From a virus (taxonomy: Duplodnaviria > Caudoviricetes), in the IMG/VR virus record IMGVR_UViG_3300020037_008176, positions 38,305 to 102,304 of that record: a stretch of 64,000 bases of DNA, one strand, 5' to 3'. Below are positions 5,789 through 64,000 of this stretch, piece by piece (position 1 is the stretch's first letter; every line of letters starts with the position of its first letter). Under the pieces are notes generated by a model, which did no database searches, was not told where the DNA came from, and worked only from the letters and a program-made list of their open reading frames with translations. The position numbers were made by a program, and so were the translations under genes.

Positions 5789-6739
5789 ATGATCACATAT
5801 CCCCGCATATTTTACAAACCCTTTGAATACCAACAAGCATTTGATTTTTATAAAGACCAACACAGAGCCCACTGGTTAGCTGATGAAGTACCTTTAGCCT
5901 CAGATTTAAATGATTGGAAATTAAAATTAAATGAATCCGAAAAAAATCTTATTGGAAATATTTTAAAATCTTTTGCTCAAACAGAAGTTCACGTAAATGA
6001 TTATTGGTCAACCAAAGTTTCATTATGGTTTCCAAAACCTGAAATACAAGCTATGGCTCGTGTTTTTGCTGATTTTGAAAGTATCCATGCCGAAGCATAT
6101 GCTCGTTTAAATGAAGAATTAGGTTTAGATGATTTCGCAGCATTTATGGAAGATGAAACTTCCAAAAATAAAATTGAAAGATTAATCGAAGTACCTGGTG
6201 ATTCATTAGAGGAAAAAGCAATTTCATTAGCTATATTTTCAGCATTTACTGAAGGAGTTAATTTATTTTCTTCATTTGCTATATTAATGTCTTTTCAATT
6301 AAGAAATTTAATGAAAGGAACAGGACAAGTAGTAGAATGGAGTGTTAGAGATGAATCTTTACATTCAAAAGCTGGATGTTGGTTATTTAAAACATTAATA
6401 AAAGAAAACCCATCATTAGATAATGACCATTTGCGTATTAAAATAATGGAAGCTTGCGAATTATCAGTTCAATTAGAATTTGATTTTATTGATAAAGCAT
6501 TTGAGATGGGAGATATTGAAGGGTTAAAAAAAGAGCAGTTAAAAGCATTTATTAAAGCAAGAGCTAATGAAAAAATGATTGAATTAGGTTATAATTCAAT
6601 TTACAATGATATAGATCCTTCATTATTAAAACAAATGGAATGGTTTGGACATTTAACAAGTGGTAAAACCCACCAAGATTTCTTTGCTGGAAGAGTAACA
6701 AATTATTCAAAATCCACTTCAGATTGGAGTGATTTATAA
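5789..6739 (+). CDS. nrdB: Ribonucleotide reductase class I beta subunit
   Basis: ESIHAEAY, EGVNLFSSF, RDESLH, DFFAGRVTNY. Confidence 0.96.
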   Translation: MITYPRIFYKPFEYQQAFDFYKDQHRAHWLADEVPLASDLNDWKLKLNESEKNLIGNILKSFAQTEVHVNDYWSTKVSLWFPKPEIQAMARVFADFESIHAEAYARLNEELGLDDFAAFMEDETSKNKIERLIEVPGDSLEEKAISLAIFSAFTEGVNLFSSFAILMSFQLRNLMKGTGQVVEWSVRDESLHSKAGCWLFKTLIKENPSLDNDHLRIKIMEACELSVQLEFDFIDKAFEMGDIEGLKKEQLKAFIKARANEKMIELGYNSIYNDIDPSLLKQMEWFGHLTSGKTHQDFFAGRVTNYSKSTSDWSDL

Positions 6740-6757: not shown

Positions 6758-8485
6758 ATGAGTAGTATAAATATAGATACAAGTAAATGGATAAAAGGTA
6801 AAAATTATCCTGAATGGTTAGATGAAATTGGGGTGAATATGATTTCTAAAGGATACTTACTCCCAGATGAAGATGTATTTGATGCATATAAAAGAGTAAG
6901 TAAAGCAGCTGCACGAAGATTAAAGAGAAAAGATTTACAACCATATTTTTTAGAAGCAATTGAAAAAAATTGGTTATGTCCTGCATCTCCAGTATTATCA
7001 AATATGGGAACTGAAAGAGGAATGCCTATTTCATGTTTTGGAATTGATGTAGGAGATTCAATTGAAGGAATAGCAGATGCAAATTCAGAATTGATGAGAT
7101 TATCATCTCAAGGTGGTGGAGTTGGAATTGGTTTATCTAGAATCAGAGGTAGAGGTAAATCTATTAAAGATAATGGGGTAAGTGAAGGAGTAGTTCCTTG
7201 GGCAAAAATTTATGATTCAACCATCTTAGCAACCAACCAAGGTTCAGTTCGTAGAGGAGCAGCTTCAGTTAATTTAGATATAAATCATCCTGATATTGAA
7301 GAATTTTTAGGAATTAGAAGACCTAAAGGTGATGTAAATCGTCAATGTTTAAATTTAAATCAATGTGTTGTAATTGATGATGAATTTATGGATAAGCTTG
7401 AAAATAAAGATCCTAAATCATTAAAACTTTGGGGAGAAATCCTTAAAACTAGATTAGAAACAGGTCAACCATATATAATGTATAAGGATAACATAAATAA
7501 AGCAAATCCTTTAGCATATAAAAATAATAATCTCCAAGTATCAATGACCAACATTTGTACTGAGATCGCTTTATATACCGATGAATTACATTCATTTATA
7601 TGTTGTTTATCATCATTAAATTTATCTAGATGGGATGAATGGAAAGATTATAAATTTGAAAATGGTATGACTTTACCTGAATTATCAACTTGGTTTTTGG
7701 AAGGTGTACTTCAAGAATTTATTGATAGAGCTAAAAATATTAAATTTTTTGAAAATACAGTTCGTTCTGCTACAAAAGGTAGAGCCATTGGATTAGGAGT
7801 ATTAGGATGGCACACATTTTTACAATCGAAAGGGTTACCATTTGTGGGTATTCAAGCTTCTTCTTATACTAGAATTATTTTTGAATTTATAGAAAAAGAA
7901 ACATTAAAAGCATCTAAAGATCAAGCCATATTATATGGAGAACCAGAATGGTGTAAAGGTACAGGTTTAAGACATACACATCATTTAGCACCTGCTCCAA
8001 CAGTTTCTAATGCTCATATTTCTGGTGGAGTTTCTCCATCAATAGAACCAATTCCAGCAAATGTTTATAATTTAAAAACAGCAAAAGGAACATTTATTAA
8101 ACGTAATAAAATTTTAGAAGAATTACTTGAAAAGAAAGGTTATAATATTGATAGTGTTTGGGAACAAATTTTAAAAGATCAAGGGTCGGTTTTTGGTTTA
8201 CCTGATTATATTTTAACTGATGAAGAAAAAGAAATATTCTTAACTTTCAAAGAAATTAATCAATTAGAAATTGTTCGTCAAAATGCTATTCGTCAAAAAT
8301 ATGTTGACCAAGCTATTTCATTAAATTTATGTTTTGATCCAAATGATACTCCTAAATGGATTAGTCAAGTTCATAAAGAAGCTCACAAATTAGGTATCAA
8401 AACATTATATTATTTAAGAACAGAGAGTGTTTTAAGAGGAGATAATTTACAAAGATTATCAGAATGCATCAGTTGTGAAGGATAA
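6758..8485 (+). CDS. nrdA: Ribonucleotide reductase class I alpha subunit (no ATP cone)
   Basis: PISCF, TNICTEI, APAPT, TLYYLR, C-terminal CISCEG. Confidence 0.96.
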   Translation: MSSINIDTSKWIKGKNYPEWLDEIGVNMISKGYLLPDEDVFDAYKRVSKAAARRLKRKDLQPYFLEAIEKNWLCPASPVLSNMGTERGMPISCFGIDVGDSIEGIADANSELMRLSSQGGGVGIGLSRIRGRGKSIKDNGVSEGVVPWAKIYDSTILATNQGSVRRGAASVNLDINHPDIEEFLGIRRPKGDVNRQCLNLNQCVVIDDEFMDKLENKDPKSLKLWGEILKTRLETGQPYIMYKDNINKANPLAYKNNNLQVSMTNICTEIALYTDELHSFICCLSSLNLSRWDEWKDYKFENGMTLPELSTWFLEGVLQEFIDRAKNIKFFENTVRSATKGRAIGLGVLGWHTFLQSKGLPFVGIQASSYTRIIFEFIEKETLKASKDQAILYGEPEWCKGTGLRHTHHLAPAPTVSNAHISGGVSPSIEPIPANVYNLKTAKGTFIKRNKILEELLEKKGYNIDSVWEQILKDQGSVFGLPDYILTDEEKEIFLTFKEINQLEIVRQNAIRQKYVDQAISLNLCFDPNDTPKWISQVHKEAHKLGIKTLYYLRTESVLRGDNLQRLSECISCEG

Positions 8486-9786: not shown

Positions 9787-10717
9787 AAAATATGCCGTAA
9801 TATCATTAAGTGGAGGTATGGATAGTTCTACTTTATTACTTCGTTTATTAAGTGAAGGTTATGAAGTAACTGCTTTATCATTTGATTATGGTCAAAAACA
9901 CAAAGTTGAATTAGAAAGAGCAACTGAATTAGTATATTTTATAAATAATAGACAGGCTGTAGTTTCAGATAAAAATGGAATTGGAGTAAATTATTATTTT
10001 ATTAAACACCAAATCATTAAATTGGATGGTTTGTCAAATTTACTAGTGAGTGGATTAGTAGATAATAATTCTATGGAAATGAAAACAGGACATTACGCCC
10101 ATGAAAATGCCCTTACAACTGTTGTTCCTAATCGAAACGCAATATTTTCAGCTATTACATATGCTGTTGCTTTATCTGTAGTGAAAAGAACAGGAAGATC
10201 ATGTAATATAGCTTTAGGAACCCACATGGGTGATTTTGATAATAAAAAGCAAAGTGGGATTTACCCTGATTGTTCTGAAGAATTTAAACAAGCGATTGAA
10301 CATGCTTTTAAAATAGGAAATTGGGATTCTGATAAAGTAGATTATTACGCTCCATATAATATAACTGATAAAACAGGAGTATTAAAAGACGGAATTGAAT
10401 GTTGTGAAAAATTAGGTTTAGATTATAAAGAAATTTATAAACGAACTAATACTAGTTATGCTCCTATTAGAGTAATCCTCCCAAGTTTAAAATCCCCAGA
10501 TCCTAATGAAGAAATAGAATCTGGAGAAAGAGAAATATGGTACTCAGACTATAAATCAGGTTCAAGTATTGAACGTATAGAATCATTTATTAAGCTAGGA
10601 TTAGAAGATTCAGTTCAATATGCTGAAGAAGATGGTACTTTAGTATCTTGGGAATTTGTTAAAGAATATGTTGAAAAAATTTGTGAGGAATGGGGGAAAA
10701 GTAAAGGAGACCATTGA
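9776..10717 (+). CDS. queC: 7-cyano-7-deazaguanine synthase
   Basis: PP-loop SLSGGMDS, FDYGQKH, VVPNRN, YPDC. Confidence 0.93.
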   Translation: MENKKYAVISLSGGMDSSTLLLRLLSEGYEVTALSFDYGQKHKVELERATELVYFINNRQAVVSDKNGIGVNYYFIKHQIIKLDGLSNLLVSGLVDNNSMEMKTGHYAHENALTTVVPNRNAIFSAITYAVALSVVKRTGRSCNIALGTHMGDFDNKKQSGIYPDCSEEFKQAIEHAFKIGNWDSDKVDYYAPYNITDKTGVLKDGIECCEKLGLDYKEIYKRTNTSYAPIRVILPSLKSPDPNEEIESGEREIWYSDYKSGSSIERIESFIKLGLEDSVQYAEEDGTLVSWEFVKEYVEKICEEWGKSKGDH

Positions 10718-56825: not shown

Positions 56826-58814
56826 ATGGCTTTATCATTATCAAAAACCGGTATAACAACCGGAAACACAATCCAATCATGGCACGTAACACAAAGTATT
56901 GATGCTTTAACTGGAACAGTAGCATATGATATTAATGTTAGTGGTAGTATCGCTTTAACAGGTTCCCTATCATCTGGACAAAATTCAACCCCTACTGGTA
57001 ATTATTCTCATGCTGAAGGTTCAGCAACAATAGCTTCAGGTTCTTTTTCTCATTCTGAAGGAACAAGTAATACAGCAAATGGGGATTATTCCCATACAGA
57101 AGGAGATGGAACCAATGCAAATGGATATGCTTCTCATGCTGAAGGAGAATCTACAACAACAATTGGAGATGCTTCCCATGCTGAAGGTCAATCAACACAA
57201 GCTCTTGGTGAATATTCTCATGCTGAAGGAAGAGAAACAATTGCTTCAGGTTCATATTCACATGCTGAGGGTAATCTTACAATTGCAATTGGTTTTGCAT
57301 CTCATGCTGAAGGTCAATCAACACAAACTGAAGGTATTTCTTCTCATAGTGAAGGTTTAACTAATTATACATATGGAAATTTTTCCCATGCTGAAGGAAG
57401 TTTTAATATTGCAACGGGAGATGGCTCCCATGTAGAAGGTGAATTTTGTAACACATTTGGTGATTCATCCCACGCAGAAGGATATCATACAGATACGTTT
57501 GGAATAAGTTCCCATGCCGAAGGAGCATTTTCAACTGCATCAGCAGATTATTCCCATGCCGAAGGAGAAGGATCATTAACATATGGAAGAAGTTCCCATG
57601 CCGAAGGATATTACACAACTACATATGGGACATGTTCACATGCTGAAGGTAACACAACAATTGCCTCAGGTTCATATTCACATGCTGAGGGATTTGAGTC
57701 TATAAGTAAAGGTAGTTATTCACATACAGAAGGAAATACAACCCAAACAGTTGGATCATTTTCCCATGCTGAGGGTAGTGGTACCATTGCTATTGGGGAT
57801 GAATCCCATGCTGAAGGGATTGGTACTGTTTCTTTAGGAGGTGGTTCCCATTCAGAAGGTGGATACACTATAGCCTCAGGTAGTGAATCTCATGCTGAAG
57901 GTTCTAACACTGTTGCTTTAGGTTTTTATTCACATGCCGAGGGAACTTATACTCAAGCAAAAGGGGAAGGATCCCATGCCGAGGGAGATAATACTATAGC
58001 ATTGGGAGATAATTCACATGCTGAAGGAGGGCTCACTCAAGCATTGGGTATTGGATCACATGCTGAAGGTCACACAACAATTGCTTCAGGTATTACTTCA
58101 CATGCTGAAGGTTATTTTACAGAAGCAGAAGGTAATAATTCTCATACAGAGGGACGACAAACCAAAACAATAGGTCAATTCTCTCATGCTGAAGGATATA
58201 ATACTACATCAAGTGGAGAATCTTCCCATGCTGAAGGAGAAGGAACCCTTTCTTTAGGTTATGCTTCACATGCTGAAGGTTATCATACTCTAGCCTCTGG
58301 AGCCCATTCTCATGCTGGAGGATTTTATACCATTGCTTCAGGTTCTTACTCTCATGCTGGGGGACAATCTAGCATATCAATTGGAGATTATTCATGTGCT
58401 TTAGGATCGGAAACAATTGCTATTGGGATAGCTTCTCTTGCTATAGGTAGACAAACAATAACCAATGGTAATTATTCATATGCTGGGGGGAATTTAAGTA
58501 AAACAGTAGGTTCTTATTCCCATGCCGAGGGCCAACAAGTTATTTCCTCAGGATCATATCAATATACTATAGGTAAATTTAATACTCATGGAGATAACAC
58601 TTCATTATTTATTGTTGGAAATGGTACAGCAGATGGGGCTAGAAAAGATGCATTCAAAGTTAGAATGTCAGGTTCTATTGTTTTACCAACAACGGCAAGT
58701 GCCGCTCCATCTTGGACAGGAACAGATGGAGAAATAGTACCAGCAACAGTAGGAGGTACATTTTATTTATATATGTGGATGAGTGGTGCTTGGAGAAGTG
58801 GTTCATTTGTTTAA
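56826..58814 (+). CDS. Tail fibre / trimeric-adhesin-like protein with SHAEG repeats
   Basis: About 37 tandem 14-aa units, then G.FN..LFIVGNGT...R.DAF; TATTTATA motif upstream. Confidence 0.8.
   Translation: MALSLSKTGITTGNTIQSWHVTQSIDALTGTVAYDINVSGSIALTGSLSSGQNSTPTGNYSHAEGSATIASGSFSHSEGTSNTANGDYSHTEGDGTNANGYASHAEGESTTTIGDASHAEGQSTQALGEYSHAEGRETIASGSYSHAEGNLTIAIGFASHAEGQSTQTEGISSHSEGLTNYTYGNFSHAEGSFNIATGDGSHVEGEFCNTFGDSSHAEGYHTDTFGISSHAEGAFSTASADYSHAEGEGSLTYGRSSHAEGYYTTTYGTCSHAEGNTTIASGSYSHAEGFESISKGSYSHTEGNTTQTVGSFSHAEGSGTIAIGDESHAEGIGTVSLGGGSHSEGGYTIASGSESHAEGSNTVALGFYSHAEGTYTQAKGEGSHAEGDNTIALGDNSHAEGGLTQALGIGSHAEGHTTIASGITSHAEGYFTEAEGNNSHTEGRQTKTIGQFSHAEGYNTTSSGESSHAEGEGTLSLGYASHAEGYHTLASGAHSHAGGFYTIASGSYSHAGGQSSISIGDYSCALGSETIAIGIASLAIGRQTITNGNYSYAGGNLSKTVGSYSHAEGQQVISSGSYQYTIGKFNTHGDNTSLFIVGNGTADGARKDAFKVRMSGSIVLPTTASAAPSWTGTDGEIVPATVGGTFYLYMWMSGAWRSGSFV
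56995..58540 (+). repeat. Degenerate 42-nt coding tandem repeat (core TCNCATGCTGAAGG)
   Basis: Constant 14-codon period with synonymous variation in the core. Confidence 0.9.
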
Positions 58815-59976: not shown

Positions 59977-60001
59977 TACAAACACTTCTTATTGATTTCC
60001 C

Positions 60002-60030
60002 AAGGTGGTCCAAAAGACCACCTTTTACAT
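60002..60030 (+). terminator. Rho-independent terminator
   Basis: AAGGTGGTC-caaaa-GACCACCTT followed by TTACATTTT. Confidence 0.8.
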
Positions 60031-60070
60031 TTTACTTGGATTACAGAAAAAATTTTCTTATATTTAAATA

Positions 60071-60307
60071 ATGGAAAAATTAGAAATCTTTGTTAATCGT
60101 ATGAAAAAATTAGGGATTGATGTGGAATTAATCCACAATTATCCTTGGATTTACATTTATAAAATAAATGGAAAAAGAGTAACTGAAAGATTCGAAGCAG
60201 AATGGGGATTCACAATTGCATTTTTACCAGTAAGGAGAGATTTACCATTCCATTTTACTAACATAAATGAGATATTTAAGTTAATTAGAAAATATATTAA
60301 AAAATGA
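60071..60307 (+). CDS. Hypothetical protein
   Basis: 78-aa ORF after a promoter motif. Confidence 0.7.
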   Translation: MEKLEIFVNRMKKLGIDVELIHNYPWIYIYKINGKRVTERFEAEWGFTIAFLPVRRDLPFHFTNINEIFKLIRKYIKK

Positions 60308-60879
60308 AAATAGAAAAATATTGTATAAATCAACACAAAAATACCAATCATTATTATGATGAGTATTTACCTTATGAATTTCATCTTAGAATGGTTGTGA
60401 ATGCAGCAGAAAAATATTCATTTCTTTTAGATGATAAAAAAGATTATACTACTGGTAAAAAACAAGAAGAAATTGGCCATTTTGATAGATCTGAGATTAT
60501 TACATTGCGTGAAGCTTGTATGAGAGCTGCTTGGGGTCATGATTTAATTGAAGATACAAGAACTTCATTTAATGATGTTAAAGAACAATTAGGTGAGGCA
60601 GCAGCAGAAATTGTTTTTGCTGTAACTAATGAAAAAGGTAAAACAAGAAAAGATAGAGCAAACAAAAGATATTATGATGGAATCAGAGCTACTCAAGGAG
60701 CAGTATTTGTAAAATTATGTGATAGAATAGCTAATGTACAATATTCTAAAATGACTCAATCAAAAATGTTTAAAAAATATAGAGATGAAAATCCAAATTT
60801 TATTGAGAGTTTAGGTTTTAAACCTAATCATTCATATAAATTAATGTTTAATGAATTAATAGCACTATTTAATGGATAA
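60304..60879 (+). CDS. HD-domain hydrolase, RelA/SpoT hydrolase (Mesh1-like)
   Basis: PY.FHL..V, AAWGHDLIEDT, V.AVT, VKLCDRIAN. Confidence 0.85.
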   Translation: MKIEKYCINQHKNTNHYYDEYLPYEFHLRMVVNAAEKYSFLLDDKKDYTTGKKQEEIGHFDRSEIITLREACMRAAWGHDLIEDTRTSFNDVKEQLGEAAAEIVFAVTNEKGKTRKDRANKRYYDGIRATQGAVFVKLCDRIANVQYSKMTQSKMFKKYRDENPNFIESLGFKPNHSYKLMFNELIALFNG

Positions 60880-61153
60880 AAGAAGTACTCACCCAGTTGA
60901 TATTAAGAATTGGATTGAAAAGGTAATGGATTCTTGTGAAACAGTTCAACAATTAATTAAAGCTGATCGTTTAAGAGATAATTTTTATAAATTATTAGAA
61001 AGAAATATTGTTAAAAGAAAATATTATATATTTGGGGGGGTTAAAAATGAAGAACAATGGTCTAAAGAATATGATAATATGCTTGATTTGATTAGAGACT
61101 TAGATACTCATTTTTTAATTAAATTAAATCAACTAGATAAATTTAACAAATAA
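60872..61153 (+). CDS. Hypothetical protein
   Basis: 93-aa ORF. Confidence 0.65.
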   Translation: MDKRSTHPVDIKNWIEKVMDSCETVQQLIKADRLRDNFYKLLERNIVKRKYYIFGGVKNEEQWSKEYDNMLDLIRDLDTHFLIKLNQLDKFNK

Positions 61154-61155
61154 AT

Positions 61156-61350
61156 ATGGAAATACTAATTATTGTTTTAATCGTTTTATTATTATTTTCT
61201 AATTCTGAGTTATCTTCTTTTACGAATGAAAATAAAGAATTAACTAAGAAATATGATGAATTACATGAAGAAAATCTTAGATTAAAAAGAGAAATTCGCG
61301 AAGAAAAAAATAAAAATATTTTATTACAATCCCTAATAAATAAAAAATGA
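61156..61350 (+). CDS. Small membrane-anchored coiled-coil protein
   Basis: N-terminal hydrophobic segment. Confidence 0.6.
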   Translation: MEILIIVLIVLLLFSNSELSSFTNENKELTKKYDELHEENLRLKREIREEKNKNILLQSLINKK

Positions 61351-61514
61351 AACCAGTATTTTGTCCTAAATGTCATAAACGAGTTAACCCACCTACATTC
61401 TTAAAAAATATAAAAATAGCAGATGGTGGAGGAATTAAATTAAAATGTGCTGATCCAAAATGTAAAGGTATTGTTAAATATAAATTCCCAAGTAAAGAAG
61501 ATGAAAATATTTAA
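61347..61514 (+). CDS. Small Zn-ribbon protein (55 aa)
   Basis: MKPVFCPKCHKR..KCADPKCKG; translated by hand; ATGA-coupled to the upstream gene. Confidence 0.65.
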   Translation: MKPVFCPKCHKRVNPPTFLKNIKIADGGGIKLKCADPKCKGIVKYKFPSKEDENI

Positions 61515-61689
61515 TATTTTTAAGAAAAAAATTATTATACCACTTGTTCGAAAAGGTGTAGAAACTGGACAATGGATTGAATGTTATAAAAATGATGACA
61601 TTTATAAAAAATTAGTTATATTATATGGTGAACCACTTCCAAAACAAATAGAAGTAGAACCATTAATCCCAGAAGAAGATCTTAAATAA
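61501..61689 (+). CDS. Hypothetical protein
   Basis: ATG 61501 preferred over the upstream GTG at 61447. Confidence 0.55.
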   Translation: MKIFNIFKKKIIIPLVRKGVETGQWIECYKNDDIYKKLVILYGEPLPKQIEVEPLIPEEDLK

Positions 61690-61746
61690 AAAATTAGGAT
61701 TTCAAAATTTTCAATCATATATTTAAAAATATAAAAAATAAAGGTT

Positions 61747-61932
61747 ATGTTTACATTTATCGCACAAGATTTTCAAGGAAATTCTTACATTTCAAGACAA
61801 CGTTTTGAAACTAAAGAACAAGTAGAAGAAAAAGCTTTTGATTTATTAGATTATCACTTTATAGCTTCCATAGAAATTGTAAATTGTAAGGATATGATTT
61901 GTTTTAATTCATTAAATCCACAATTAAATTAA
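61747..61932 (+). CDS. Hypothetical protein
   Basis: Promoter motif and AAAGGTTATG start. Confidence 0.7.
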   Translation: MFTFIAQDFQGNSYISRQRFETKEQVEEKAFDLLDYHFIASIEIVNCKDMICFNSLNPQLN

Positions 61933-61937
61933 AATTA

Positions 61938-62010
61938 GCGCCCTTAGCTCAGTGGTAGAAGCAATTCCCTCATAAGGAATAGGTCGTAGGTTCAATCCCT
62001 ACAGGGCGCA
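61938..62010 (+). tRNA. tRNA with CAT anticodon (elongator Met or Ile2); CCA not encoded
   Basis: Acceptor GCGCCCT/AGGGCGC-A, D arm TAGCTCAGTGGTAGAAGC, anticodon arm ATTCC-CTCATAA-GGAAT, T arm GTAGG-TTCAATC-CCTAC. Confidence 0.93.
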
Positions 62011-62024
62011 CTAAAAATAAATAA

Positions 62025-62210
62025 ATGAAACAACGTGATATTTATCAAGAACTTAGAACTATTGGATTAACACATGATCAATGTAGTGAGGTTATGGATT
62101 TAATTAATACACTACCAATCCAAATTTTAGAAGGAATAACTGACACAAAAGTAAGTATATTAGATGGTATAATCAAAGTAGAACCTATGAATATAAATGT
62201 AAAATTTTAA
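62025..62210 (+). CDS. Hypothetical protein
   Basis: 61-aa ORF. Confidence 0.6.
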   Translation: MKQRDIYQELRTIGLTHDQCSEVMDLINTLPIQILEGITDTKVSILDGIIKVEPMNINVKF

Positions 62211-62214
62211 ACAA

Positions 62215-62517
62215 ATGAAACTAAAATTAATTATATTAACATTTTTAGCATTTTTAGCATTAAATGTAAATGCACAACAAAAATCTAAAAAAACACATTC
62301 ATCTGATAAAGCAGGTATAGGTTTAGTAACCGTTGGAGCTATTTCAATGAGTATTGGATTCCTAATCCCAGATGGTTCAGAATGGACATTTTCAAAAGGA
62401 TATAATTCACAAGTTATAACAAAACCATTTTATAGAAATCCATCCCGTGTAGCTTGTATTGGGGTAGGTTTAACCTTGAGTATTGGAGGATTAATTTATA
62501 ATAAAAACCATAGATAA
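62215..62517 (+). CDS. Secreted/membrane hypothetical protein
   Basis: Signal peptide (..VNA-Q) and two Gly-rich hydrophobic segments. Confidence 0.7.
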   Translation: MKLKLIILTFLAFLALNVNAQQKSKKTHSSDKAGIGLVTVGAISMSIGFLIPDGSEWTFSKGYNSQVITKPFYRNPSRVACIGVGLTLSIGGLIYNKNHR

Positions 62518-62519
62518 AA

Positions 62520-62678
62520 ATGGAAGAAGAATTAAGAAATGCTTTGTTAGAAGCATCAATATGGGAAGGACAATTAACTGAATACGAAAGAACACAAATA
62601 AGTTTTTTAGAAGCAAGAAAATGTGTAGTTGATAGAATATTTGAAAAATATAAAAATAAAATAATCAAAACAAAATGA
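62520..62678 (+). CDS. Small hypothetical protein (52 aa)
   Basis: MEEELRNALLEASIWEGQL..; fills the gap; ATGA-coupled to the next gene. Confidence 0.6.
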   Translation: MEEELRNALLEASIWEGQLTEYERTQISFLEARKCVVDRIFEKYKNKIIKTK

Positions 62679-62863
62679 TATCAGAAGATAAATTAGGATT
62701 AGCTGAAGTTGCAATTGAAAAACTAGCTGAAGCTTTGAGTATGTCTGAAAGTGATGTGGTTAGAATATTAAGAGAAGGAATGGAAAATATTAGTCCAATA
62801 TATGGACAATTAGGTAAAACACATCAATATTTTATTGATGAGATGGAAGCAACATTTTGTTAA
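62675..62863 (+). CDS. Hypothetical protein
   Basis: 62-aa ORF ending about 10 nt before the first attC-like site. Confidence 0.65.
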   Translation: MISEDKLGLAEVAIEKLAEALSMSESDVVRILREGMENISPIYGQLGKTHQYFIDEMEATFC

Positions 62864-62872
62864 AATTATTAC

Positions 62873-63004
62873 GTATAACGGTTGGGTATTGTTGTCTGTT
62901 GGCGACTTAAACCACAAATGTTAATTTGAAAAACAAAATTATATATGAGTACAAAAGTTAAATCGAAGCACAAAACCGCCAATAGCAACAATACCTTGTT
63001 ATCG
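62873..63004. mobile_element. attC-like recombination site 1
   Basis: GTATAAC..GGTATTGTTGTCTGTTGGCG / 72-nt loop / CGCCAATAGCAACAATACC..GTTATCG. Confidence 0.7.
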
Positions 63005-63271
63005 GCTGCCTTTCTTCAAAGTAAGGGCTTCAAATTGGTAGAGGAAAGTCCGTTTGAAAATTTCAATATGCCTTATTATGTGAAGGAAGGTGTAATACTT
63101 TTATTTAACACGCCAATAACCGAATGGAATGAAAGTGATTTCCTTGTAGGTAGTGCTGAAATGAGATGCGGGAAGTATTATGCTGTTGCTTTTCGTTGGA
63201 TAAAAGAGCAAAAAGATATTATTGAAATTTACAAAGCGGTAAAAGGTAAGGATTTAGATGGTGTCGGTTAA
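62945..63271 (+). CDS. Cassette 1 hypothetical protein (start codon inside site 1 loop)
   Basis: 108-aa ORF; its stop overlaps the cassette-terminal inverted repeat. Confidence 0.7.
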   Translation: MSTKVKSKHKTANSNNTLLSAAFLQSKGFKLVEESPFENFNMPYYVKEGVILLFNTPITEWNESDFLVGSAEMRCGKYYAVAFRWIKEQKDIIEIYKAVKGKDLDGVG

Positions 63272-63277
63272 GGTTGC

Positions 63278-63371
63278 CGATAACGGTTGGCAATATGAAA
63301 CGGTTGCCTTATAGTTCGTTTCAATTTTATTAATAAGCCTGATGGCAACTGTTTTATATTGCTTGTTAGGC
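63278..63371. mobile_element. attC-like recombination site 2
   Basis: CGATAAC..GCAATATGAAACGGTTGCC / 35-nt loop / GGCAACTGTTTTATATTGC..GTTAGGC (canonical GTTRRRY). Confidence 0.75.
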
Positions 63372-63412
63372 ACAGTACGGTATTAATTAGTAATTTTTAA
63401 AATAATAAAAGT

Positions 63413-63871
63413 ATGAGAAATAGTAAAGAACAAATGCTGTATTCAGCGAAAAAAATGAGAGAAATATTAGCATCTATTGAAGGTATATTAGATGGATATG
63501 AAGGAATTGAAGGCAATAAATCATACGTTAGTTACTGTCTTAAAAAAGCAAAATTAGCTAATGAAGATGACTCGAAATTGAAACAGTTGTATGATGATAC
63601 ATTTAACGTAGATATAAATCTACGAAAAGGAATTAATATTGCAACGCTGTTACATATTATTGAAAATTACTTCAAATTACTCGATGATATTGATACAGCA
63701 AGTGATATGTTTAAACCAACTTGGTGTAAGATTACAAGTGTTGTAAGTAAGTTAGATAGTTTGCGATGGTTGTATTGCACTGTTGATAGTGATAGAAACG
63801 AAGAAGGTAATATGATTGTAAATGGGGATTGTTTCAAAAGAGAAGAACGTATCATTTTATCACTTTCGTAG
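63413..63871 (+). CDS. Cassette 2 hypothetical protein
   Basis: 152-aa ORF; stop immediately before site 3. Confidence 0.75.
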   Translation: MRNSKEQMLYSAKKMREILASIEGILDGYEGIEGNKSYVSYCLKKAKLANEDDSKLKQLYDDTFNVDINLRKGINIATLLHIIENYFKLLDDIDTASDMFKPTWCKITSVVSKLDSLRWLYCTVDSDRNEEGNMIVNGDCFKREERIILSLS

Positions 63872-63877
63872 TATTGT

Positions 63878-64000
63878 GCCTAACGTTTCTCGGCTTTGCT
63901 TTGTTGCGGAAAAGTAAGCCAAAACTTTGAGTTAAAAACAAAATTAACAAATATAAACCGAACATCAAGTTAAGCCTAAAACCGCAATAGAGCAAAACCG
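63878..64000. mobile_element. attC-like recombination site 3 (right end cut by window)
   Basis: GCCTAAC (canonical RYYYAAC)..CGGCTTTGCTTTGTTGCGG / 72-nt loop / CCGCAATAGAGCAAAACCG. Confidence 0.7.

Follow-up and report, generated by a model that had tools for sequence, protein, structure and literature searches.

Why should the small genes of a phage stand in a row, each preceded by an imperfect palindrome with the same terminal nucleotides, and by what means might such genes be exchanged? The question is raised by the end of a 64,000-nt window (the whole stretch of DNA that was analyzed), which is the last 64 kb of the 102,304-nt IMG/VR record IMGVR_UViG_3300020037_008176; base 64000 of the window is the final base, 102304, of the record. 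The final 1.1 kb of this contig contain three hairpin sites and two small genes. We conclude that the window probably carries the recombinase-distal end of an integron-like gene-cassette array in a large Bacteroidota phage. In related phages, sites of the same design form arrays upstream of a tyrosine recombinase and end at a fixed junction beside it, the stems of the sites covary, and closely related arrays differ by whole cassettes with breakpoints at the core of the site.

Hairpin sites and genes at the contig end

The sites, the putative cassettes, and their open reading frames (ORFs) are the following.

62876-63001, + strand: site 1, an attC-like hairpin of 126 nt, with TAAC at 62876-62879 and GTTA at 62998-63001
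62879-63283, + strand: putative cassette 1, from the C of the AAC core through hairpin 1 and ORF1 to the AA of the next core
62945-63271, + strand: ORF1, 108 amino acids, the single ORF of unit 1
62998-63012, + strand: left inverted repeat of cassette 1 (GTTA plus 11 nt), which pairs with 63270-63284
63270-63284, + strand: right inverted repeat of cassette 1, beginning with the final base of the TAA that stops ORF1 (63269-63271) and ending in TAAC
63281-63368, + strand: site 2, a hairpin of 88 nt, with TAAC at 63281-63284 and GTTA at 63365-63368
63284-63883, + strand: putative cassette 2, hairpin 2 plus ORF2, delimited by end pairing and the limit of homology
63413-63871, + strand: ORF2, 152 amino acids, the single ORF of unit 2
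63881-64000, + strand: site 3, the first 120 nt of a hairpin of about 127 nt, with TAAC at 63881-63884, cut by the contig end

An initial annotation, made from the letters of the window, had described three palindromes that open with TAAC, GTTA closing the two complete ones, stop codons nearby, and single ORFs in between; all of this is in the sequence. The stop codons lie 10-13 nt 5' of each TAAC (TAA at 62861, TAA at 63269, and TAG at 63869). The palindromes are also enriched in guanine plus cytosine (GC), as had been said, with 32-53% GC in the arms, compared to 23-25% in the loops and 27% in the window. Site 1 opens with TAACGG and a TTG bulge; its stem measures about 21 bp and has an additional T, its loop is 73 nt long, and the site closes with TTGTTA. 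Its loop contains AAAAACAAAATTA and the ATG of ORF1; the codons for the first ~18 residues of ORF1 lie in the loop and the right arm, and the reading frame continues through GTTA (codons TTG TTA). The N-terminus of ORF1 is conserved in the related contigs L096 (88% over residues 1-108) and L098. Site 2 has a 19-bp stem, including two G.T pairs, and a 35-nt loop, and hairpins like it (89-93% identity) occur in other arrays (L130, L178). The geometry that sites 1 and 3 were said to share is present, with AAAAACAAAATTA at an equal offset in both, 53 nt from the T of TAAC, and loops of 72-73 nt. Site 3 had been predicted to close with GTT at about position 64003. Eleven contigs match its left arm exactly; all 11 close with GTTA at the predicted place (...GCAAAACCGATGTTA; ..CCGATGTTA), but neither their flanks nor the ORFs that come next are the same.

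No function was assigned to ORF1 or ORF2 from Pfam, PHROG, or the protein atlas. Homologs of ORF2 were found in 14 IMG/VR contigs, mostly free of hairpins. In one of these, L082, two copies of a different 52-nt repeat (6619-6670 and 7149-7200) flank the ORF2 homolog in place of the hairpin sites. This repeat is promoter-like, with a small palindrome, and possibly represents another type of modular element between genes.

The two ends of each unit are complementary to one another. In cassette 1, 13 of 15 positions pair between 62998-63012 and 63270-63284, with one G.T and one T.T mismatch on the + strand; in cassette 2, 13 of 14 pair between 63365-63378 and 63871-63884. The terminal motif of cassette 1, AAGGTTGC..TAAC, is the same in the homologous cassettes of L096 and L098. 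In 187 adjacent site pairs from relatives, we aligned the 10 nt that follow GTTA with the 10 nt that precede TAAC of the next site. On average 6.97 positions formed Watson-Crick pairs and another 1.13 G.T pairs, and 63% of the adjacent pairs reached at least 8 of 10, whereas control pairings (against the 5' flank of the same site, or against the next site but one) gave about 3.6 Watson-Crick pairs of 10. The chimeric ends that were first noticed in the window are general across the site family.

As single-stranded DNA (ssDNA), the + strand of site 1 folded at -19.4 kcal/mol compared to -15.7 for the - strand; for site 2 the values were -17.5 (z -3.75) and -12.5 kcal/mol. Nearly all stem mismatches in the window sites are G.T on the + strand. 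A covariance model (R1) was built from 72 related sites, with site 1 in the training set and site 2 excluded from it. On the + strand it scored site 1 at 90.5, site 2 at 53.5 (E 7e-9), and site 3 at 63.5-79 bits, versus 18, 9.7, and 16 bits at the same places on the - strand. With default filters R1 missed site 1, and with the filters off it recovered all three sites; no other match was found at E 0.1 in positions 1-58000 of the window. A search of Rfam at E up to 10 returned nothing relevant.

Sites in relatives have the consensus TAACG(G/T)TT, stem, loop, stem, T-GTTA, with a 3-nt bulge; G5 is present in 97% and T-5 in 96% of them, and they fall into size classes of ~48, 80-90, 120-130, and 190-200 nt. 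The 72-site alignment, which represents the 120-130-nt class, has 19 stem pairs; compensatory changes occur in 17 of them, and one position is a G.T pair in 70 of the 72 sites. The covariation score was 0.859, compared with 0.186 for shuffled and 0.11-0.16 for slid partners. The covariation of the arms, previously noted for two sites, is confirmed by this alignment. The sites share with attC the AAC/GTT core, unpaired bases (here the 3-nt bulge), and a conserved structure with variable sequence; the G5.T-5 pair is present in 96-97% of them.

Recombinase and junction in related phages

A search with ORF1 led to L096, in which five sites of the same design stand in a row, the last being the homolog of site 1 (9932-10057). 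It is followed by the ORF1 homolog, by AAGGTTGC..TAAC, and then, on the same strand, by a gene for a tyrosine recombinase of the Xer/IntI clade, 265 amino acids long. The block 62867-63284 of the window is shared with L096 at 89% identity; a different cassette precedes the block in L096, where it leads directly into the attI-like site and the recombinase.

The recombinase of L096 has an intact R-K-HxxR-H-Y set and matches PF00589 and PF13495. Among the NCBIfam models, recombinases of this type reached 177 bits with XerA_Arch (cut-off 220) and 147 bits with XerD and XerC (cut-off ~330); the integron integrase model TIGR02249 (cut-off 265) aligned in two stretches and gave 148 bits. The best relative of solved structure is the XerA of P. 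abyssi (4a8e). Where VchIntIA (2a3v) has 77 residues the phage enzyme has 29, so the insertion specific to IntI is absent. In integrons this insertion contacts the extrahelical bases of folded attC. The initial annotation had proposed a recombinase encoded outside the window and a search for one with this insertion; a recombinase does adjoin the arrays of relatives, but it is Xer-like instead.

The recombinase occurs in at least 94 IMG/VR contigs; 80 were taken, which gave 76 unique loci. A scan for TAAC...GTTA elements with complementary arms (score of at least 30) found 255 sites upstream of the recombinase versus 11 downstream (0.57 versus 0.017 per kb), with 0.018 sites per kb in control phage loci. 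By the same scoring, 147 upstream sites passed on the - strand versus the 255 on the + strand. The arrays reach 18 or more sites, with up to 18 in the 10 kb covered, and the nearest site mostly ends no more than ~1 kb from the recombinase start codon. Every array ends with a variable flank, TAAC, and the conserved TATTATATATA. The junction between TAAC and TATTATATATA precedes the start of the recombinase by 55-65 nt and is kept down to ~63% recombinase identity. This attI-like junction was found in the relatives; for the window it would lie beyond the contig end. Mobile single-gene cassettes at attC-like sites, as first proposed for the window, find their counterpart in these 76 arrays. Homologs of the recombinase in chromosomes (38-47% identity, nearly all in Bacteroidota) had no arrays, with one exception, the contig L206 from a metagenome-assembled genome.

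Pairs of closely related loci were informative about the junction. The recombinases of L152 and L153 are 100% identical, and the identity extends back to exactly TAAC, beyond which the sequences are unrelated. L148 and L149 (99.5% identical) break at the same TAAC, and L118 and L119 diverge at a 48-nt site. The differing DNA upstream of identical recombinases is again cassette array and not host DNA. This bears on the possibility that the recombinase is a lysogeny integrase or a Xer-type resolvase, the junction an attP- or dif-like site, and the hairpin genes unrelated morons. In temperate phages attP usually adjoins int, and the junction next to the recombinase could be read in this way. For the cultured phages Freya, Leef, and Ingeline, Bartlau et al. 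2021 (PMC8776804) took the integrase as a sign of temperate potential. However, the recombinase also occurs in contigs of 250-360 kb, the upstream DNA that differs is cassette array, and the junction has the same TAAC core as the hairpins; we regard a lysogeny or resolvase function as very unlikely to account for the arrays.

Several other genes lie next to the recombinase. The gene directly after it encodes a DUF932 protein in L096 (11245-12039) and an HNH endonuclease in the Freya phages (L190, 4969-5592). Homologs of the window ORFs at 60071-60307 and 60872-61153 are located just after the recombinase in L148-L153 and L122.

Evidence for exchange of cassettes, and the unit that travels

The Freya phages are cultured Polaribacter phages, and their integrase shares 37% identity with that of L096. 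Freya_1 and Freya_10 are 100% identical in the flanks, and Freya_10 has an extra block of 4.9 kb that contains ~12 small ORFs with hairpins. The block is inserted just upstream of the integrase, at ...gtttacAAC/ACCCC. Freya_5 to Freya_9 contain intermediate subsets of the block, so that Freya_1-10 span the range from none to all of it, and Danklef phages share parts of it at 97%. For the window itself, the breakpoints of similarity to other contigs are located on the cores (62867/8, 63280/1, 63284, 63368, 63883, and 63880/1); the 89% homology of cassette 2 to L082 and L083, for instance, ceases at 63883, in the AA of the core. The cassettes thus appear, from these comparisons of related genomes, to move as units by recombination at the core.

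Single hairpin types recur at 83-95% identity in different arrays, which would also be expected if homologous recombination acted between repeated intergenic promoter/stem-loop elements, similar to the promoter early stem-loop (PeSL) elements of T4-type phages, and the recombinase had no role. The different repeat around the ORF2 homolog of L082 fits this explanation as well. It has no need, however, for paired cassette ends or for a conserved core and bulge, and it leaves the tight tie to one recombinase clade unexplained. At the attI-like junction the left flanks are unrelated up to TAAC, and there is therefore no homology to recombine on. Homologous recombination as the sole process seems to us quite unlikely, if a little less so than the lysogeny and resolvase functions discussed above.

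The hairpins might instead act at the level of RNA, where they would serve the processing or termination of a polycistronic transcript or the control of its translation, and not as recombination sites. All genes are on the + strand, the strand that folds better through G.U-type pairs, and the loops hold start codons and an A-rich leader. An RNA function does not explain why the ends of each gene are complementary to each other and not to their own hairpin, nor the fixed junction beside the recombinase and the differences by whole units cut at TAAC. An RNA function in place of recombination is unlikely, though we give it slightly more weight than homologous recombination alone; the hairpins may have an RNA role in addition. 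Elements of the IS200/IS605 type, which also have hairpins, were considered and rejected: the neighborhood has no HUH transposase, and in place of fixed left and right ends there are chimeric ones.

With regard to the travelling unit, in three of three discordant pairs of homologous cassettes the hairpin accompanies the ORF downstream of it, and the downstream hairpin does not. The window and L096 share hairpin 1 and ORF1 and differ further downstream. Because hairpin and downstream ORF travel together, the boundary of the unit is placed at the 5' AAC of the hairpin and not at GTT. The exchange at the core that had been foreseen for relatives is seen there, but the boundary lies at AAC and not, as had been said, at GTT. 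The exact cut would lie inside TAAC, by analogy with integrons.

The loop contains the ATG of the cassette ORF in 62 of 103 sites of 100-139 nt and in 10 of 11 sites of at least 140 nt, versus 2 of 73 sites of 70-99 nt. Cassette proteins that start in the loop (in L096, L098, and the window) share an N-terminal N-T-L-L-x-A-A-F, which comes from ..TTGTTATnnGCTGCCTT, that is, from the right arm and GTTA; the recombination core is hence translated. In L097 (9880-10300), sequence corresponding to the right arm and GTTA is coding (..NNNNTLLSATF..), a terminator-like hairpin lies upstream, and CAACGAGAT repeats are found on both sides.

The cargo was hyperdiverse and comprised 192 unique cassette ORFs (188 non-redundant) with a median of 88 amino acids. 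A Pfam family was found in only ~12 of the 149 cassette ORFs scanned. Among the families are Tad6 (a Thoeris inhibitor), two DNA methyltransferases, an ADP-ribosyltransferase, GNAT acetyltransferases, an RNA ligase, an exoribonuclease, and YopX.

Several observations weigh against the reading of the window as part of an integron-like array. The excision of circles and catalysis by the recombinase are putative, and the enzyme lacks the insertion with which IntI contacts its folded site. No tyrosine recombinase was found in the whole 102-kb contig. Four records with sites, 96-100% complete by CheckV, have no PF00589 gene, although the same search detected the recombinase in the L096 record, which served as the positive control. 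Complete site-carrying phages without PF00589 indicate that the sites can persist without a recombinase in cis. In L097, ORF1 is kept with the "right arm" as plain coding sequence and no left arm, which indicates that arms can be lost or overlap protein constraints. The figure of 94.7% pairing in the stems is partly circular, because the set of sites was chosen by hairpin score. Finally, G.T wobble on the coding strand suits folding of RNA as well as of ssDNA; the better-folding strand is equivalent to the integron bottom strand, but it is also the mRNA-sense strand.

One of these four records deserves mention in its own right. L098, a 324-kb jumbo phage record (100% by CheckV), has at least nine intact sites over at least 20 kb; no tyrosine recombinase was found anywhere in this record.

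Setting, known systems, and proposed mechanism

The 102,304-nt record is estimated by CheckV to be ~63% complete. Every gene of the window is on the + strand, and the contig ends inside site 3, exactly where relatives run on towards the recombinase. No array was found at the 5' end of the contig, nor in backbone relatives (80 loci, found via the 191-amino-acid protein at 60304-60879). The initial annotation's label of the phage as lytic is unsupported.

Other features of the contig lie outside the array. A tRNA-Met (CAT) gene is located at 61938-62011, ~850 nt upstream of the array; it accounts for the only DNA similarity of 60000-64000 to the phage collection, which contained no close relative and in which the matched features are annotated as tRNA-Arg or hypothetical protein. 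A protein of 662 amino acids (56826-58814) with dozens of SHAEG-type repeats is likely a tail fiber, and around it the GC content rises locally to 37-40%, against 27% in the window. Bases 1 to ~110 of the record, before the window, are the reverse complement of a stretch at ~640-760, as if the assembly had folded back on itself where the contig begins.

The arrays resemble integrons in the rows of single-gene cassettes, in the imperfect palindromes with AAC/GTT cores and conserved, covarying structure, in the chimeric ends, and in the fixed attI-like junction beside a tyrosine recombinase; sedentary chromosomal integrons with homogeneous attC sites are the closest. The order on the + strand (cassettes, attI-like junction, recombinase in sense) corresponds to the bottom-strand order of integrons. 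The differences are substantial, however. The phage recombinase is ~55 residues shorter than IntI and lacks the IntI insertion. The ORFs of integron cassettes are mostly promoterless, point away from intI, and have attC at their 3' end, whereas here the ORFs point towards the recombinase, in the same orientation as its gene, and the hairpin is 5'. The phage sites have longer stems (19-21 bp), often a start codon in the loop, and end pairing that extends ~10 nt past the core, and the system is encoded by Bacteroidota phages. Because both the IntI domain and the cassette orientation differ, the system is not a true integron; it is a variant of the integron principle.

The closest recombinase clade is that of Xer (P. 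abyssi XerA), but Xer systems have no cassette arrays and resolve dimers or integrate whole elements at dif. The action of XerCD on the folded single-stranded attP of CTX-phi provides a precedent for a Xer enzyme that recombines an ssDNA hairpin. Small accessory genes between repeated elements, in plastic regions, are also known from the PeSL cassettes of T4-type phages and the pdif modules of Acinetobacter plasmids. The exchange of PeSL cassettes is attributed to homologous recombination and involves no recombinase of its own; the XerC/D sites of pdif modules are duplexes of 28 bp and not hairpins, and these modules do not have complementary ends.

Integrons had been described in the initial annotation as mainly chromosomal or plasmid-borne. 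Qi et al. 2023 (PMC9892861) had already reported a few in phages: with tools for bacterial attC, they found 3 canonical integrons and 17 clusters of attC sites lacking an integrase (CALINs) in 10,705 phage genomes, read these sites as parts of bacterial integrons, and described no phage recombinase or attI. Their sites include those of Polaribacter phage P12002L, which may belong to the present family. The CALINs are similar to the window in that a phage sequence bears a cluster of attC-type sites but no integrase; here 1.1 kb contain three sites, and the contig, in which no recombinase was found, ends inside site 3. Could the window, then, hold a canonical integron fragment taken from a host and served by the host's IntI? 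The AAC/GTT cores and imperfect palindromes, together with the published phage CALINs, speak for this. Against it, the composition and the ORFs are phage-like, the site family is tied to a phage-encoded recombinase that is not IntI, and the genes are oriented opposite to the usual integron cassettes. Of the alternatives we weighed, an origin from a host integron is the least credible, and we consider it extremely improbable.

For the integron-like array of phage origin, the following mechanism is proposed. A cassette consists of a folded-DNA recombination site, one small gene, and a short inverted repeat ending in the next TAAC; the site has the core TAAC(G)...(T)GTTA and a bulge of 3 nt, and its stem covaries while its loop is variable. 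The recombinase would excise cassettes as circles and insert them at the junction of TAAC and TATTATATATA. It would cut in the AAC on the 5' side of a hairpin into which the coding strand folds, this strand corresponding to the bottom strand of integrons. Once a cassette is circular, its ends would pair and lengthen the stem by ~10 bp, and this pairing would explain why the ends look chimeric in the array. The larger loops carry the start codon of the cassette gene and probably its promoter too. The window array may have its own recombinase, or it may be a CALIN-like array served in trans. Given that the contig has no recombinase and that four near-complete site-carrying phages lack one, this phage may be CALIN-like and may rely on a recombinase provided in trans.

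We lean, with moderate confidence, towards a broader picture in which Bacteroidota phages, whether siphoviruses of ~40 kb or jumbo phages above 300 kb, have an integron analog of their own. A minimal Xer-like recombinase without the IntI domain would capture and shuffle hundreds of different small genes, some of them for counter-defense, by way of folded single-stranded hairpins that double as promoter and translation start, and cassettes would also reach recombinase-less phages such as this one, perhaps by co-infection. Our literature searches found no publication in which a Xer-type cassette array of phages is described. Direct tests of these ideas are open to experiment in cultured phages of Polaribacter and Cellulophaga. 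The integron is seen as an invention of bacteria, one that needs the special domain of IntI. If the present reading is true, recombination at folded DNA sites can be achieved without that domain, there is a mechanism for the accessory regions that are hyperplastic in Bacteroidota phages of the sea and the gut, and hundreds of uncharacterized small genes are marked as swappable cargo; those with a family match include Tad6, orphan DNA methyltransferases, and ADP-ribosyltransferases.

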